A DNA stretch of 64,000 nucleotides from Alphaproteobacteria bacterium. GTDB taxonomy: Bacteria; Pseudomonadota; Alphaproteobacteria; UBA828. The position numbers were made by a program, and so were the translations under genes. The number at the start of each line of letters is the position of its first letter. Within the stretch, counting starts at the first letter, position 1. The notes under the pieces are model-generated. The model did no database searches and had not been told where the DNA came from. It saw only the letters and a program-made list of their open reading frames with translations. Positions 21,846-29,136 of the stretch are shown here, piece after piece. The stretch spans positions 126,869 through 190,868 of the forward strand of contig OZ251509.1 in the NCBI GenBank assembly GCA_965242855.1, given 5' to 3'.

Positions 21846-22724
21846 ATGCTTGTGAGCGATCTACGATACGAGGCGCCGGAGACGGTGGAGGCCGCGACCC
21901 GGCTCCTCGCCGATGCGGACGGCACGGCCCGGGCGCTGGCCGGCGGCACCGACCTCCTGGTGCAGCTGCACACCGGCGTCGTGCGACCCGCGCTCATCGT
22001 CGACCTGAAGCGTATCCCGGCGCTGACGCGCGTGGAGGCGGACGAGAGCGGCTTCCGAATTGGCGCCGCCGTGCCGGGCGCGGTGCTCGGCAAGAACGCC
22101 GCCGTCAAGGCGGCCTGGCCGGGCGTGGTCGAGGCGCTGGAACTGATCGGCTCGACCCAGATCCAGGGCCGTGCCTCGCTCGGCGGTAATTTGTGCAACG
22201 GTTCGCCCGCGGCCGACGCCGTCCCGGCGCTGATCGCCGCCGGCGCGACCTGCGAGGTGGCCGGCCCCGGCGGCAACCGCTCCGTGCCGGTGGAGGAGGT
22301 GGTCACGGGGCCCGGCAGGCTCTCCCTCGACAAGGGTGAAATCGTGGTGTCGTTCATCCTGCCCACGCCGCCGCCGCGCGCGGGCGACGCCTATCTTCGC
22401 TTCATCCCGCGGACCGAGATGGATATCGCGGTGGTCGGCGCCGGCGTCGCGCTCGCCCTGGACGAGGCGGGCATCTGCACCCATGCGCGGCTCGGCCTGG
22501 GCGCGGTCGCGCCGACGCCGCTGCTGGTCGAGGCGGGAGCGAAGGCGTTGATCGGCGGCGCCGTGGACGACGCCGCGCTGGCGCGCCTCGCCGCCGCCGC
22601 CTGCGCCGCCTGCGACCCGATCGACGACAAGCGCGGAACGGTCGAATACCGCATCAAGGTGGCGGGGGTGCTGGCGCGGCGCGCGGCGCGCGCCGCCCTC
22701 GAACGCGCGAGGGAGAAGCGATGA
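21846..22724 (+). CDS. Molybdo-hydroxylase FAD-binding medium subunit (CoxM/XdhB-like)
   Basis: AGGTDLLVQLH… FAD-binding PCMH domain, 292 aa, C-terminal CO_deh_flav_C-like region. Confidence 0.85.
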   Translation: MLVSDLRYEAPETVEAATRLLADADGTARALAGGTDLLVQLHTGVVRPALIVDLKRIPALTRVEADESGFRIGAAVPGAVLGKNAAVKAAWPGVVEALELIGSTQIQGRASLGGNLCNGSPAADAVPALIAAGATCEVAGPGGNRSVPVEEVVTGPGRLSLDKGEIVVSFILPTPPPRAGDAYLRFIPRTEMDIAVVGAGVALALDEAGICTHARLGLGAVAPTPLLVEAGAKALIGGAVDDAALARLAAAACAACDPIDDKRGTVEYRIKVAGVLARRAARAALERAREKR

Positions 22725-23227
22725 CGAAATACCACGTCTCCGCGACGGTCAACGGCGAGCCGGTGGAGTTCCTCTGCGCGGCCGAGCAGACCCTGCTCGA
22801 CGTCCTCCGGGACGAGCTCGACCTGACCGGCACCAAGGAGGGCTGCGCCACCGGCGATTGCGGCGCGTGCAGCGTGACCGTGGACGGACGGCTGGTCTGC
22901 GCCTGCCTGATGCTGGGCGCCGAGGCTCAGGGCCGCGCGATCGGCACCATCGAGGGCATGGCCGAGGGCGACAGGCTGCATCCGCTGCAACAGCGGTTCC
23001 TCGAGGACGCGGCGCTCCAATGCGGCGTCTGCACGCCGGGCTTCCTGGTCGCGGCGAAGGCGCTGCTCGACGAGAATCCCGACCCGACGGAGACGGAGGC
23101 CCGCTACTGGCTGGCCGGGAATCTCTGCCGCTGCACCGGGTACGACAAGATCATCCGGGCCGTGATGACGGTCGCGCGTTCACGCGCGCGGGGCCACGCG
23201 ACGGCCGCCGAGGCGAGAGGAGAATAG
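22721..23227 (+). CDS. Molybdo-hydroxylase (2Fe-2S)-binding small subunit (CoxS-like)
   Basis: CATGDCGACSV (plant-type [2Fe-2S]) and QCGVCTPG…CRCTGY (second [2Fe-2S]); translationally coupled. Confidence 0.9.
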   Translation: MTKYHVSATVNGEPVEFLCAAEQTLLDVLRDELDLTGTKEGCATGDCGACSVTVDGRLVCACLMLGAEAQGRAIGTIEGMAEGDRLHPLQQRFLEDAALQCGVCTPGFLVAAKALLDENPDPTETEARYWLAGNLCRCTGYDKIIRAVMTVARSRARGHATAAEARGE

Positions 23228-23230
23228 ACC

Positions 23231-25519
23231 ATGGCAACCGCCCAACCGGACACCCGCAACGGAAACGGCTCGCTCAAATACGTCGGCACGCGCCACGTCC
23301 GCCCGGACGGCGTCGACAAGGTCACCGGCCGGGCCAAATTCGGCGCCGATTTCGCGCTCCCCGGGATGCTGGTGGGCAGAGTCCTGCGCAGCCCGCACGC
23401 GCATGCGCGCATCCGCTCCATCGATACGGCGAAGGCGCGGGCGCTCCCCGGCGTGAAGGCGGTGGTGACCCGCGACGAGATGCCGGAAGTCCCCTCCCAG
23501 TGGGTGCCGGCCGGCGAGGTGCAGGTGAACTTCCGCGACATGTCGGAGAACGTCATGGCGCGCGGCAAGGCGCTTTACGACGGCCACGCGGTGGCGGCGG
23601 TGGCGGCGACCACGACGGCGGTCGCCAGGCAGGCGCTGGCGCTGATCGATGTCGACTACGAGGTGCTGCCGCACGTGATCGACGTGGAGGAGGCGATGAA
23701 GCCGGACGCCCCTCTGCTCCACGAGGACATGATCACGGAAGGCGTGGAGCCGACGCCCGACAAGCCCTCCAACGTCTTCAAGAAGGTCGCATTCGCGAGC
23801 GGCGACGTCGAGGCCGGCTTCGCGGCCGCCGACGCGGTGGTCGAGCGCGCGTTCACCACCAAGCCTGTCCACCAGGGCTATATCGAGCCTCACGCGGTGG
23901 TCGCGAGCGCGGGCGAGGACGGCCAGTGCCAGATCTGGTGCTCGACCCAGGGGCAGTTCACCGTGCGCGCCTACTGCGCCAACCTGCTCGGCATGGACAT
24001 GGCGGACATCCGGGTCACGCCGTCCGAGATCGGCGGCGGGTTCGGCGGCAAGACGGTCGTCTATCTCGAGCCGATCGCGCTCCGGCTGTCGCAGCTCGCG
24101 GGCCGGCCGGTCAAGATGGTGATGTCCCGCGCGGAGGTGTTCCGCGCCAGCGGCCCCACCTCCGGTGGCGCGGTGAAGATCAGGATGGGCGCCACGAAGG
24201 ACGGCCGGATCACCGCCGCCCGGGCTTGGCTCGCCTACCAGGCGGGGGCCTTCCCCGGCTCGCCGATCCAGCCCGGCTGCATGTGCGTGTTCGCGCCCTA
24301 CGACATCGAGAACGCCGAGGTCGTGGGCTACGACGTGGTGGTGAACCGCCCGAAGGTCGCGGCCTACCGCGCGCCGGGCGCGCCGATCTCCGAGTTCGCG
24401 GCCGAGGCCGTGATCGACGAGCTCGCCAAGAAGCTCGCCATCGACCCCGCCGAATTCCGTATCCGCAACGCGGCCAGGGAAGGGACGCGCGCGCTCTACG
24501 GCCCGAAATTCGGCCCCATCGGCTGCGTCGAAACCCTGGAGGCCGCCCGCGACAGCGACCACTACAGAACGCCGCTCGGGCCGAACCAGGGGCGCGGCAT
24601 CGCCACCGGCTTCTGGTTCAACATCGGCGGCGAATCCTGCGCCACCATCAACATCACCGAGGACGGCACGGCAACGGTGGTCGAGGGCAACCCGGACATC
24701 GGCGGCTCGCGCGCCTCGATCCAGCTCATGGCGGCGGAGGCCCTGGGGATCGCGCCCGACAAGGTACGGCCGCTGGTCGCCGACACGAGTTCGATCGGCT
24801 ACACCTTCCTCACCGGCGGCAGCCGCGTCACCTTCGCCACCGGTATGGCCGTCGTCGAGGCGGCGGGCCAGGTGGTGCAGGCGCTGCGGGAGCGGGCGGC
24901 GAAGATCTGGGAGATCCCGATCGAAGCGGTCGTCTGGGAGGACGGCCAAGCCAAGCCCGCGGGCAGCAACGCCGGCGCGTTCGAACCCATGAGCCTGGCC
25001 GAGATCGCCGCCCAGGCCGGCAAGACTGGAGGGCCGATCACGGCGACCGCCTCGATCAACGCGCAGGGCGCGGGGCCGGGCTTCGGCACCCATGTGTGCG
25101 ACGTCGAGGTCGATAAGGAGACCGGCCGGGTCACCGTCCTGCGCTATACCGCCGTGCAGGACGCCGGGCGCGCGGTGCATCCGAGCTACGTCGAGGGCCA
25201 GATCCAGGGCGGTGCCGCGCAGGGCATCGGCTGGGCGCTGAACGAGGAGTACATCTACGACGAGCGCGGGCGCCTCGAGAACCCGGGCTTCCTCGACTAC
25301 CGGATGCCGGTGGCCTCCGACCTGCCGATGATCGACGCGGTGATCGTCGAAGTGCCGAATCCGAACCACCCCTACGGGGTGCGCGGGGTCGGCGAAGTCC
25401 CGATCATCCCGCCGATGGCGGCGGTCGCGAACGCGGTCGAGAACGCCACCGGCGTGCGCATGACCGACCTGCCGATTTCGCCGCCGCGCCTGCTCGCCGC
25501 GCTCGACAACGGGGGCTGA
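23231..25519 (+). CDS. Xanthine dehydrogenase-family molybdopterin-binding large subunit (CoxL-like, form II-type)
   Basis: 762 aa; Ald_Xan_dh_C / MoCo-binding domains; active-site loop AAYRAPGAP resembles the AYRGAGR form II motif rather than VAYRCSFR of bona fide CO dehydrogenase. Confidence 0.85.
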   Translation: MATAQPDTRNGNGSLKYVGTRHVRPDGVDKVTGRAKFGADFALPGMLVGRVLRSPHAHARIRSIDTAKARALPGVKAVVTRDEMPEVPSQWVPAGEVQVNFRDMSENVMARGKALYDGHAVAAVAATTTAVARQALALIDVDYEVLPHVIDVEEAMKPDAPLLHEDMITEGVEPTPDKPSNVFKKVAFASGDVEAGFAAADAVVERAFTTKPVHQGYIEPHAVVASAGEDGQCQIWCSTQGQFTVRAYCANLLGMDMADIRVTPSEIGGGFGGKTVVYLEPIALRLSQLAGRPVKMVMSRAEVFRASGPTSGGAVKIRMGATKDGRITAARAWLAYQAGAFPGSPIQPGCMCVFAPYDIENAEVVGYDVVVNRPKVAAYRAPGAPISEFAAEAVIDELAKKLAIDPAEFRIRNAAREGTRALYGPKFGPIGCVETLEAARDSDHYRTPLGPNQGRGIATGFWFNIGGESCATINITEDGTATVVEGNPDIGGSRASIQLMAAEALGIAPDKVRPLVADTSSIGYTFLTGGSRVTFATGMAVVEAAGQVVQALRERAAKIWEIPIEAVVWEDGQAKPAGSNAGAFEPMSLAEIAAQAGKTGGPITATASINAQGAGPGFGTHVCDVEVDKETGRVTVLRYTAVQDAGRAVHPSYVEGQIQGGAAQGIGWALNEEYIYDERGRLENPGFLDYRMPVASDLPMIDAVIVEVPNPNHPYGVRGVGEVPIIPPMAAVANAVENATGVRMTDLPISPPRLLAALDNGG

Positions 25520-25546
25520 GGCGGTACGCTAGGCGCACGCTCCGGG

Positions 25547-26512
25547 GTGCCACGCGACGAGAGACAGGGCGACACGGAGGCGCGCATGGGCGCGCTCTTT
25601 GCGGAAGAGGCACCCGGGAGGCCGGCCGAGGCGTCGTCCGGACGGTGCGGAGGAGAGACGACATACGGGCGGGAATCCGTCCCCGACCCCCTCCAGCGCA
25701 AAGACAACTTGGCCTTCCTGCATGATTTGAGTCAGCACGGTGTGAGCGTGAAGCTCGTCGTCACCTCCCCGCCCTACAATCTCGGGAAGGACTACGAAGC
25801 CAGAACCTCGTTGGAGGACTACGTCGAGGCGCAGCGGCGTGTGATCGCCAAGTGCGTCCGGGTCCTGCATCCGCGCGGCTCACTCTGCTGGCAGGTGGGT
25901 AACTACGTCGCGGACGGGGAGATCACCCCACTCGACACCCTCCTCTATCCCGTGTTCCGGGACCAGGGGTTGAAGCTCCGCAACCGCATCGTCTGGCATT
26001 TTGGCCATGGCCTGCATTGCACGAAGCGACTCTCCGGCCGCTACGAGACGATCAACTGGTGGACCAAGGGCGACAACTATACGTGGAACCTGGACAATAT
26101 CCGCGTGCCGTCGAAATACCCCCACAAGCGGCACTTCAAGGGGCCGAACGCCGGCAAGCTCTCGGGCAACCCGAAGGGCAAGAACCCGAGCGACGTTTGG
26201 TCGTTCCCGAACGTCAAGAACAACCATCCGGAGAAGACGATCCACCCGTGCCAGTTCCCGGTCGAATTGGCGGAGCGTCTGGTGTTATCGATGACGGACC
26301 CGGGCGATGCTGTGCTCGACCCGTATATGGGCGTGGGCAGCACCATCATCGCCGCCCTGATGCACGGCCGCGCGGCCTACGGTTGCGACACCGTCCGCGA
26401 ATATGTGGAGATCGCGCGCGCGAGGGTGGAGCGGTTGCGGTCCGGCACCCTCCGCACCCGCCCGATGGGCAAGCCCATCTACGACCCGACCCTGCCCAGG
26501 GGCGGCCATTGA
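25547..26512 (+). CDS. Beta-class DNA methyltransferase (N4-cytosine/N6-adenine; M.BglII-like); true start may be internal (M14 at 25586 or later)
   Basis: Motif IV …LVVTSPPYNLGKDY… precedes motif I …VLDPYMGVGSTIIAA… (beta order: IV-TRD-I); GC drops from about 25690; N-terminal 45 codons are host-like GC-rich. Confidence 0.8.
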   Translation: MPRDERQGDTEARMGALFAEEAPGRPAEASSGRCGGETTYGRESVPDPLQRKDNLAFLHDLSQHGVSVKLVVTSPPYNLGKDYEARTSLEDYVEAQRRVIAKCVRVLHPRGSLCWQVGNYVADGEITPLDTLLYPVFRDQGLKLRNRIVWHFGHGLHCTKRLSGRYETINWWTKGDNYTWNLDNIRVPSKYPHKRHFKGPNAGKLSGNPKGKNPSDVWSFPNVKNNHPEKTIHPCQFPVELAERLVLSMTDPGDAVLDPYMGVGSTIIAALMHGRAAYGCDTVREYVEIARARVERLRSGTLRTRPMGKPIYDPTLPRGGH

Positions 26513-27123
26513 TGCGGATCGTGGATCACTATTCGCACTTGAATGGCGAGGAATATCTTTTGGTGCACCATCCGAAGTTGTGGGAAGAGGTGAAATCCGT
26601 GATCGGCGATGTCAACGCGGGGGCCTGTCGAACCAAGAAGTCGAAGGAGCGGCGTCGCAAAGACCAGTTGCTTTACTCTCCCCCAGACATGAACCGTGCC
26701 TTCAAGGCTGGCCTCAAGAAGCGGGGATGGAGCGAGCGTCGTAAAAACTTCTATGTGGCGGCTGACGAAAAGCTCATGCGGGCTATTCACGGAGAATCGG
26801 AGGAAAAACAGAAAAAAGTGATCAAGAAAGCCGGATACGAACCGATCATGTCCTATAACCAGACCGATTTCGTGAAGAACCGTGTCGCGGTCGAGGTTCA
26901 GTTCGGCAAGTATGCATTCGTCGCTCATGACCTGTTCGTCAAGCATTTGAGCTTCTATGTTTCGGATATCATCGACGTGGGAATCGAGATCCTTCCCATG
27001 AAGGAACTGGAGCGTGAAATGTCGTCGGGTGTCCCATATTACGAACGCGATTTGCTGAACGTCATTCGCCAAGGCAGGGGTGTGCCGGCAGTTCCACTCG
27101 TACTTGTCGGTGTCGCACCTTGA
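26513..27123 (+). CDS. BglII-family type II restriction endonuclease
   Basis: MRIVDHYSHLNGEEYLLVHHPKLWEEVKS… / …VAVEVQFGKYAFVAHDLFVKH… / …VPLVLVG… parallel R.BglII blocks (DYNHADEILNPQLWKEIEE; VEVQFSNYPFL…FHKS; VPIRLVG); ATG overlaps the MTase stop (TGATG); AT-richer codon usage. Confidence 0.7.
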
Positions 27124-27307
27124 TGTATGCGCTTGCTCGACAGTCGATGCATCTTCCGTTCAAAAGGCGTCCCACGGTGAGGCACCACGGCAAGCGCTTT
27201 ATCGGTCTTTCAGGTTTTCCAGGTCACGCGGTGCGTTGACAGCTTGAATGCGCCGCCGGACCGCACATGAGTGGAGCATGCGCACCGGGAGCGTCCCGAA
27301 CGCCGGC

Positions 27308-29085
27308 TCACCCTTCCAGTTCGTAGGCCTCGATGGCGGCGTCGCGGCCGCGCACGGGATAGCGGCCGCGGAACGCGAGGACGGCGCGCCCGGACGCGAG
27401 CGTCGCCGTTTCTCCGCTCAGCAGGATGGCGCACTCGCCGCCGCAGGACGCCTCCTTGCAGAACTGCTCGAGCCGCGCGGCGACGTTCACCGTGTCGCCG
27501 ATCAGCGTGTAGTTGACCCTGCCTTCCGCGCCGATGTTGCCGACGATCGCGGGCCCCGTGTGGATGCCGATCCGCATCGCGACCGCGTCGACCCCGGCCG
27601 CGCGGCGACGCGCGTTCTCCGCCGCAACGCTCGCGCGGATGGCGGCGGCGGCGCGCAGCGCCCGGTCGGCCGCGTTCGCGCCGTCCTCTTCCCAGAAGGC
27701 CATGAGCGAATCGCCGATATATTTGTCGACAGTGCCCCCCTCCGCTTCGACGCAGCCGACCAGGATGGAAAAGTGCGCGTTCAGGAGCCGCGCCACCTCC
27801 GCCGGCGGCATCCGCTCCGAAAGCGTCGAGAAACCCGCGATGTCCGTGAACATCACGGTCACCCGTTTTTCCTCCGAGACCACCGGTGCGTCGCGCGCGA
27901 CGAGGCGGCGGACGAGTTGCCGCGGCACGTAGGTTTCGAACCAGCGCAGGCCGGCAATCATCCTGTTGAAGGCGCGGGCGGCTTCGTCCAGCTCGCGCAC
28001 CCGGCTGGGCTTCAGCGGGGCGACGCGGCCGAATTCGAGCGCCGCCACCGAGCCCGCGGCCGCGGCGAGCGCCTTGACGGGGGCGCTGACGCGGCGGCCG
28101 AGGAAGACGGCGATGGCCACGCTCACCAGGATGACGACGCCGCCCGCGATGCCGGCCGCGACCAGCCGGTTCCACTCGACGCCGAGGCCGTCCTCCGGCC
28201 CCGCATAAATCCCCGCCGTCAACGGCACCCGGCCCAGGCCGTCGATCCTGGTGTGGATGAACCCGTATTCCTCGCCGTCGATCGTCACCACATGCCCGTT
28301 CACCCCTTCGGCGAGATCGATGAGCAACTCCCGGAAGTCCGGGCTGCGGAAACGGGCGAGGACGCGATCGCCCACCTCGTCCAGCCGCGGCAGGGGAACG
28401 TCGTCGTCCCGCCGGTAGGAGCCGCCCGCCATGTTGCGATGGGCGAGCACGTGGTCCTCGCCGTAGAGAACGAACAGGTTGCCGCCCAGGGAACCGGCGC
28501 CGGCCCCGGCGATGAATCGCGACAGGTCGCCGACGGTGACCGCCGACAGCAGCACGCCCAGATAGCGATCGCCTTCCCAGACCGGCGTCCGCACCGTGAG
28601 AAGCGTCGAGCCGACGAGCTCCTCCCACACCGCGCCGCTCCAGAACGGCCGGCGCGGGCGATCCCGCGCGGCGGCCAGGGTGGAGGCCAGCTCCGGGAGA
28701 TCGTCGACATGCGCTTCCTCGGATACGCCGCGCCCCCGGAGGACACGCACGACCCTGCCGTCGGCATGCACGAATCCCATGCCCAGGATCTGCCGGGCCG
28801 CCGCCGTCGTCGTCAGCAGCGCCTGGGCGAAGCGCGCGTCGTCGGCAGGGTCCAGCGCGCCGGACTCGATCATGCCGGCGATGTAGGAATTCGCATCCTC
28901 GACCGGCTGCAGATGGCCGCGGACCTCCCGCACGAACGAGGAGATGGCGAGATGCGCGCGGTCACCCAACAGCGCCAGCGTGTTCCTCTGGGCGGTCCAC
29001 ATGGAGATGCCCTGCACGAGCATCATGCCGACCAGGATCAGCAGCCCGAAGCCCGTCACCAGAACCGTCGTGATCGATGGCTTCA
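27308..29085 (-). CDS. Class III adenylate/guanylate cyclase with N-terminal TM-flanked periplasmic sensor domain and HAMP
   Basis: Start MKPSITTVLVTGFGLLILV (GGAGG RBS); …VTVMFTDIAGFSTLSE…YIGDSLMAFW…GIHTGPAIVGNIG…GDTVNVAARLE… cyclase motifs; upstream 470-aa extension of the 1062-aa ORF is rejected. Confidence 0.8.
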
Positions 29086-29136
29086 TCCGGAGGCCCCCTC
29101 CCCTCCATCGCGCCGCCCCTCGCCCTGGGGCTCGCG

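Follow-up and report, generated by a model that had tools for sequence, protein, structure and literature searches.

A chromosomal gene pair of probable BstYI kind behind a molybdenum-hydroxylase operon in an uncultured alphaproteobacterium

Several described restriction-modification (R-M) systems resemble the subject of this study, a pair of adjacent methylase and nuclease genes at positions 25586–27123 of a 64-kb window (the whole stretch of DNA that was analysed) from the chromosome of an uncultured alphaproteobacterium. The closest of them, the BstYI system of Geobacillus stearothermophilus Y406 (PDB 1sdo/1vrr/2p0j), pairs a nuclease that cleaves R^GATCY with an amino-methyltransferase, M.BstYI, which is compared here by description. 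The BglII system (PDB 1d2i) recognizes AGATCT, and includes a 223-residue nuclease, the N4-methylcytosine (N4mC) methylase M.BglII and the controller protein C.BglII. Nph3I of Nitratiruptor phage NrS-3, likewise compared by description, combines a nuclease specific for RGATCY (R.Nph3I) with a methylase that makes N6-methyladenine (6mA) in RG6mATCY (M.Nph3I) (PMC10734518). Gene pairs annotated as ‘BglII/BstYI family type II restriction endonuclease’ and ‘site-specific DNA-methyltransferase’ are also present on the Sphingobium sp. CAP-1 plasmid p2 and in the Burkholderia phages BcepIL02 and DC1.

Our analysis indicates that the window’s pair is, very probably, a conventional Type IIP R-M system of the BstYI kind. 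Its two open reading frames (ORFs) lie on the plus strand directly after a three-gene molybdenum (Mo) hydroxylase operon; the methylase and nuclease genes are separate, adjacent and overlapping, which is the Type IIP arrangement, and the pair recurs in four other contigs of our comparison set (L001, L081, L086 and L087) as well as on plasmid and phage. The gene order is the same on plasmid p2 (methylase 68% and nuclease 60% identical to the window’s; gene ends overlap) and in BcepIL02 (71% and 62%; genes 8 bp apart). In contrast to these plasmid and phage copies, the window’s copy is chromosomal, lacks mobile-element hallmarks and has been resident since before a speciation event. It differs from the BstYI system in its host, a high-GC uncultured alphaproteobacterium instead of a thermophilic Firmicute, and from the BglII system in having no controller gene. 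Nph3I, which is borne by a mobile element, is likened to the window’s pair by its RGATCY target and by a target site inside the nuclease gene with none in the methylase gene.

Identity and predicted function of the two enzymes

The nuclease matches the Pfam family Endonuc-BglII (PF09195) along the whole profile (121.1 bits against a cut-off of 26, E=5e-35, profile positions 1–163 of 163) and the PADLOC REase_II model at 203 of 203 positions (E=1e-92). In a search against solved structures, its residues 1–203 align with residues 1–203 of BstYI (1sdo) without a gap at E=7e-87, whereas BglII is matched only at E=0.06 and in two short stretches. The two proteins have the same length, 203 residues, and are 65% identical overall, although identity over the N-terminal 115 residues is only 53%, compared to 81% over residues 116–203. 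Four residues (D119, E128, Q130 and K133) do not vary among 15 nucleases of the PF09195 type that include BstYI, and the window’s nuclease keeps every family-invariant residue, S171 too; in the comparison with R.BstYI, it has the same D119, E128, Q130, K133 and S172. The D..(8)..E-x-Q pattern is present, and D119, E128 and Q130 align with D84, E93 and Q95 of BglII, with which the window’s nuclease also shares PF09195 membership, the D-X8-E-X-Q spacing and, as predicted, a GATC-centred hexanucleotide target. We take D119, E128 and Q130 to be the catalytic residues, as in the BglII and BstYI structures.

Judged by its sequence, the nuclease is a BstYI orthologue and not a BglII-like enzyme; since orthology to BstYI makes RGATCY the expected target, cleavage at R^GATCY is the likely prediction. 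An earlier note on this DNA had called the protein a BglII-family nuclease on the strength of peptide blocks and had warned that its specificity may not be AGATCT. The blocks are all present in the translation where the note had placed them (MRIVDHYSHLNGEE..PKLWEEV, VEVQFGKY..FVKH and VPLVLVG in the nuclease frame; SPPY and DPYMGVGST in the methylase), the family holds through PF09195, and the warning was apt; it is the closeness to BglII itself that has to be given up. Thus the BstYI subfamily gains an uncharacterised member of a family that is very large and already named (NCBI: ‘BglII/BstYI family type II restriction endonuclease’): the family searches returned at least 8000 scored candidates for each of the two proteins, all at E ≤ 0.001, and these counts are lower bounds.

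The methylase matches the Pfam family N6_N4_Mtase (PF01555; 176.8 bits, cut-off 26.7, E=8e-52, profile positions 1–219 of 221) and PADLOC MTase_II (E=1.6e-78), and among solved structures the beta-class enzyme M.RsrI is closest to it. Its motif IV stands N-terminal to motif I, as in the beta-group order IV..VIII-TRD-X-I-II-III (TRD, target recognition domain; PMC2890505), in agreement with the beta-class amino-methyltransferase of the earlier note. Motif IV is of the S-P-P-Y/F rather than the D/N-P-P-Y form, and SPPY is invariant across an alignment of 18 family members. At its active site, the cytosine-N4 methyltransferase N4CMT has SPPY as motif IV, in the place where the adenine-N6 methyltransferase CcrM has DPPY (PMC10406627). 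BstYI is reported to be insensitive to 6mA (PMC10734518), and M.BstYI has been placed, ‘possibly’, with the N4mC methylases M.BamHI and M.BglII (PMC2890505). Because SPPY is invariant, BstYI is unblocked by 6mA and M.BstYI is grouped with N4mC methylases, we favour N4-methylcytosine as the product: the methylated site is probably RGAT4mCY.

Taken together, these assignments suggest a simple mode of action: the methylase would mark the host’s own RGATCY sites, most likely as N4-methylcytosine, and a homodimeric nuclease of the PD-(D/E)XK type would cut unmarked R^GATCY in DNA that enters with phages or plasmids. Because the window has 36 RGATCY sites, the methylase is needed wherever the nuclease is active. 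A likely RGATCY restriction barrier, probably with a 4mC mark, can in this way be assigned to an uncultured alphaproteobacterial lineage, which may be of use for interpreting methylomes and, if the organism is ever cultured, for designing DNA for transformation; the practical value is small. The locus raises no new question on the mechanism of R-M systems, and is only mildly unusual in the deep allelic divergence across the 5′ half of the nuclease gene and in the unequal amelioration of the two genes.

Origin, composition and variation of the locus

GC content is 0.74 at 25400–25699, 0.60–0.66 across the methylase gene and 0.49–0.54 across the nuclease gene, and is back at 0.70 by 27200–27499. 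At third codon positions (GC3), the nuclease (26512–27123) stands at 0.65 and the methylase (25691–26512) at 0.87, beside 0.90–0.95 in neighbouring host genes. As the GC3 of the methylase is already 0.87, its lower GC comes mostly from amino-acid composition. The fall in GC, which the earlier note had read as a sign of horizontal acquisition, is real. Unequal GC3 is also seen in the sister species (methylase 0.85, nuclease 0.58), and in another high-GC host (L086) both genes of the pair have a GC3 of about 0.68.

Horizontal acquisition is the origin that we assign to the pair, because the GC3 of the nuclease is 0.65, the nine Mo-hydroxylase operons that come next in closeness (L002–L010) do not have the pair, and a plasmid and phages do. 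The cyclase and ilvD genes found downstream in the window are likewise missing at those nine operons. The sister species (L001 and L087; flanks 90–94.5% identical) has the pair at the same site; therefore the insertion is not recent, and the acquisition predates the split of the window’s species from the sister species. An empty site with both flanks was not found, either when the Mo-hydroxylase large subunit was scanned against genome contigs or among the cyclase homologues and their contigs. Every contig sharing both flanks holds at least the methylase, the distant relatives (L002–L010, L089 and L090) have other neighbours, and distant cyclase homologues lie in other contexts. Flanking direct or inverted repeats amounted to chance-level matches only, no integrase or transposase lies at the pair, and tRNA and Rfam scans of the window gave no matches. 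The neighbours of the pair are housekeeping genes and do not make up a mobile-element cassette.

Outside this clade, orthologous methylase-then-nuclease pairs occur on plasmid p2, in the phages BcepIL02 and DC1, and in L086, where the chromosomal context is unrelated. The pair in L086 (9288–14936) lies near a PIN-domain gene, a helix-turn-helix-domain gene (PF13384/PF13518/PF13551/PF13565) and a Mu-type transposase gene (rve), a neighbourhood more plainly mobile than the window’s.

Both genes are under purifying selection. The ratio of nonsynonymous to synonymous substitution rates (dN/dS) between the window and L001 of the sister species is 0.17 for the whole nuclease, 0.02 for nuclease residues 131–203 and 0.13 for the methylase core, with methylase values spanning 0.13–0.16 and flanking genes at 0.16–0.32, so that the pair as a whole falls at 0.13–0.17.

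Contigs whose flanks are 98–99% identical to the window were compared with it by nucleotide, and identity changes abruptly along the pair (Table 1). The stretch from 25520 to about 25743, the methylase 5′ end with the preceding spacer, does not align with its equivalents in L001, L083, L085 or L088 (compared with L083/L085:7001–7125 and L001:10293–10403). Other alleles encode methylases of 279–297 residues, compared to the 308-residue window type with its 66-bp spacer, and in three contigs (L083, L084 and L085) the ATG at which the methylase is called to start shares bases with the large-subunit stop codon of the Mo-hydroxylase. Synonymous divergence in the nuclease gene between the window and L085 is 0.46–0.61, whereas that of the flanks is 0.034–0.043, a 10–15 fold excess within one species; for this reason the divergent 5′ halves point to old or exchanged alleles rather than to relaxed constraint. 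The N-terminal half of the window’s nuclease is identical at 71% of its amino acids to the conspecific allele and at 68–70% to alleles of other taxa; the distances are about equal. Across the 5′ half of the gene (26512–26900), a comparison of the window, L085, L084 and L001 gives at least three alleles, at 78–83% nucleotide identity and roughly equidistant.

Two relatives carry altered pairs. In L085, a 2-bp insertion (AT) near window 26686 frameshifts the nuclease into two ORFs, which is either a real inactivation or an assembly error. L088, whose cyclase is 93% identical to the window’s, has lost its nuclease gene entirely: in place of about 770 bp in the window it has GC-rich sequence of about 100 bp (L088:3171–3268 corresponds to window 26509–27280). 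Its methylase has stayed intact; the protein is 10 residues longer at the C-terminus (..GGHRDGLHPAMRA), and a GC3 of 0.92 makes its gene fully host-like. The L088 enzyme is an orphan methylase that descends from the R-M system described here. A seeming truncation of the nuclease in L083 was rejected, as it proved to be a scaffold gap of Ns. The related contigs thus form a natural series of the R-M life cycle at a single place in the chromosome, with an intact, a frameshifted and a methylase-only state. In the course of events that we propose, the pair would have entered by horizontal transfer before the sister species separated, and the divergent alleles, the frameshifted nuclease and the methylase-only strain would be the usual later stages of such a system within the clade.

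The same pattern admits a more ambitious interpretation, to which we give little credence: that a long-lived polymorphism is kept within and across two species of the clade, with at least three deeply diverged nuclease N-terminal alleles together with the frameshifted and methylase-only variants. Balancing selection or repeated allele replacement acting on a chromosomal, operon-embedded R-M system could produce such a pattern, the un-ameliorated codon composition of the nuclease beside the ameliorated methylase could belong to it, and, within RGATCY, the N-terminal variation of the nuclease might adjust its specificity or its sensitivity to methylation.

Alternative explanations

Several observations weigh against a working BstYI-type system that makes N4mC. 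The nearest solved methylases by overall sequence, M.RsrI and M.MboIIA, are adenine enzymes; the best NCBIfam match of the methylase is adenine-specific, but at 110 bits against a cut-off of 292; and R.Nph3I, an RGATCY enzyme that also belongs to PF09195, has a 6mA methylase as its partner and is blocked by that modification (PMC10734518), so that PF09195 membership alone leaves the methylated base unfixed. We also considered avoidance of RGATCY as evidence of activity and rejected it: the observed/expected ratio of 0.63 is similar to that of other GATC-centred palindromes (TGATCA 0.63, CGATCG 0.71) and to that in relatives without the system (0.72), and site avoidance therefore lends no support. 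Finally, the nuclease is missing or disrupted in related strains; the system is therefore dispensable, and could be silent in the window’s organism. The adenine evidence is the basis of one alternative, in which the methylase makes RG6mATCY as in Nph3I and the nuclease, unlike BstYI, is sensitive to 6mA. We regard this as unlikely: SPPY is a family-invariant motif IV shared with N4CMT, the nuclease is far closer to BstYI, which 6mA does not block, the grouping of M.BstYI with N4mC enzymes, tentative as its ‘possibly’ makes it, runs the same way, and the NCBIfam adenine match falls far below its cut-off. Far less probable still is a BglII-type nuclease specific for AGATCT. The Pfam family is named after BglII, and the blocks LW.E, VEVQF..Y.F and VP..LVG are common to both proteins, but the match to BglII is marginal and confined to two short stretches, against a full-length, gapless alignment with BstYI.

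A conventional BstYI-type system has also to be set against decay or domestication, in which the methylase is retained as an orphan or epigenetic enzyme expressed with the Mo-hydroxylase operon and the nuclease is silent or being lost. The methylase-only L088, the frameshift in L085, the far more host-like GC3 of the window’s methylase and the methylase starts that overlap the large-subunit stop codon in L083, L084 and L085 all fit such a course. In the window, however, the nuclease ORF is intact and all of its invariant residues are kept; its dN/dS is 0.17 overall and 0.02 in the C-terminal third; two other assemblies, from metagenomes or sequencing runs, contain a 100% identical nuclease; and the frameshift in L085 could have arisen in assembly. 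We consequently think decay of the window’s system quite improbable. That the GC dip and the ORFs are a product of chance or of assembly, for example a chimeric contig of foreign and host DNA, might be suspected, given that the source organism is uncultured and that related contigs contain scaffold gaps (L083). This explanation is refuted by the same junctions on both sides in the independent assemblies L081, L082, L083, L084, L085 and L087 and in the closed chromosome of the metagenome-assembled genome behind L001, and we accord it almost no probability.

Gene starts, expression and surroundings

The first ORF is open from an outermost GTG at 25547, but a Shine-Dalgarno sequence, GGAGG, stands five bases before ATG 25586 and no such site precedes the GTG; moreover, gene callers also give a 308-residue methylase on the 98.6%-identical contig L081. 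The methylase start is thus most likely ATG 25586. Many family members are 304–311 residues long and have a poorly conserved N-terminal tail of similar length, to some of which the window’s tail is weakly similar (GALFAEEAPGRPA vs PDLFSEATPGEPA). Because family members carry this equivalent variable tail and a ribosome-binding site precedes ATG 25586, the GC-rich first 35 codons of the methylase are best read as the family’s own unconstrained tail and not as captured host DNA. The earlier note had found these codons GC-rich and host-like and had left the start or promoter unclear; the start can now be placed, and a scan for a sigma-70-like promoter was negative.

As the methylase gene is the first of the two and the nuclease start codon overlaps its stop (TGATG), translation of the nuclease is suggested to be coupled to that of the methylase, in which case the nuclease probably could not be made without the methylase. 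Methylase-then-nuclease order with overlapping gene ends is also found in L086, on plasmid p2 and in L081. Neither a sigma-70-like promoter nor a terminator was detected by scans of the 66-bp upstream spacer and the 184-bp downstream spacer; read-through transcription from the Mo-hydroxylase operon is therefore plausible for the pair. RNA folding of both spacers was no better than that of shuffled controls (downstream spacer z-score 0.06), and neither spacer holds a suitable ORF, or room, for a controller (C) protein gene. The Mo-hydroxylase large-subunit gene ends at 25519, and the pair lies directly downstream of it, as first noted.

Table 1. Features of the gene pair and its surroundings, and nucleotide identity along the pair in contigs with near-identical flanks (window positions)
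Feature	Positions	Strand	Basis or value
Mo-hydroxylase FAD subunit gene	21846-22724		Pfam match
Mo-hydroxylase 2Fe-2S subunit gene	22721-23227		Pfam match
Mo-hydroxylase molybdopterin (large) subunit gene	23231-25519		Pfam match
Spacer, 66 bp, large-subunit stop to methylase start; includes Shine-Dalgarno GGAGG 25576-25580	25520-25585	+	sequence read
First ORF, open from outermost GTG, 321 aa	25547-26512	+	
Methyltransferase gene, 308 aa, stop included; beta-class amino-methyltransferase	25586-26512	+	Pfam PF01555, PADLOC MTase_II
Motif IV SPPY (catalytic motif) in methylase; residues 74-77 of 321-aa ORF	25766-25777	+	translation; family alignment
Motif I DPYMGVGST (S-adenosylmethionine binding) in methylase; residues 258-266 of 321-aa ORF	26318-26344	+	translation; family alignment
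TGATG, methylase stop codon overlapping nuclease start codon	26510-26514	+	sequence read
Restriction endonuclease gene, ATG start, 203 aa, stop included; BstYI orthologue	26512-27123	+	1sdo match, PF09195, PADLOC REase_II
Nuclease codons D119 to K133 (DFVKNRVAVEVQFGK), with PD-(D/E)XK-type predicted active-site residues D119, E128, Q130	26866-26910	+	
AGATCC, sole RGATCY site within the gene pair; in nuclease gene, none in methylase gene	26987-26992		
Spacer, 184 bp, nuclease gene to convergent adenylate cyclase gene	27124-27307		
Adenylate cyclase gene, convergent	27308-29086	-	
Related contigs: upstream spacer and methylase 5′ end	25520-25743		unalignable to window
Related contigs: methylase	25744-26100		90-91% nucleotide identity
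Related contigs: methylase	26101-26511		96% nucleotide identity
Related contigs: nuclease 5′ part	26512-26900		78% nucleotide identity (L085)
Related contigs: nuclease 3′ part	26901-27123		95.5-97% nucleotide identity

The downstream spacer varies by indels. A 16-bp segment, ATGGCAAGCGTTCGGT, is missing from the window at 27186/27187; in L081, L082, L083 and L085, this segment and the ACGGCAAGCG that comes after it make up an imperfect tandem duplication. About 70 bp of the spacer are missing in L001. Farther downstream, homology of the window to the sister species (L087) stops at about window 32483.

A Mo-hydroxylase large subunit 69% identical to the window’s is present in L080 (JBNOAI010000003.1), a contig labelled Leptospira interrogans, where it could represent contamination or horizontal transfer in that assembly. 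L087 also contains, beside a short-chain dehydrogenase gene (L087:1–3237), a second system in which a gene for a 582-residue N6_N4_Mtase protein is followed by one for an 836-residue ResIII helicase-type protein, and which, from this composition, looks like a Type III Mod/Res pair.

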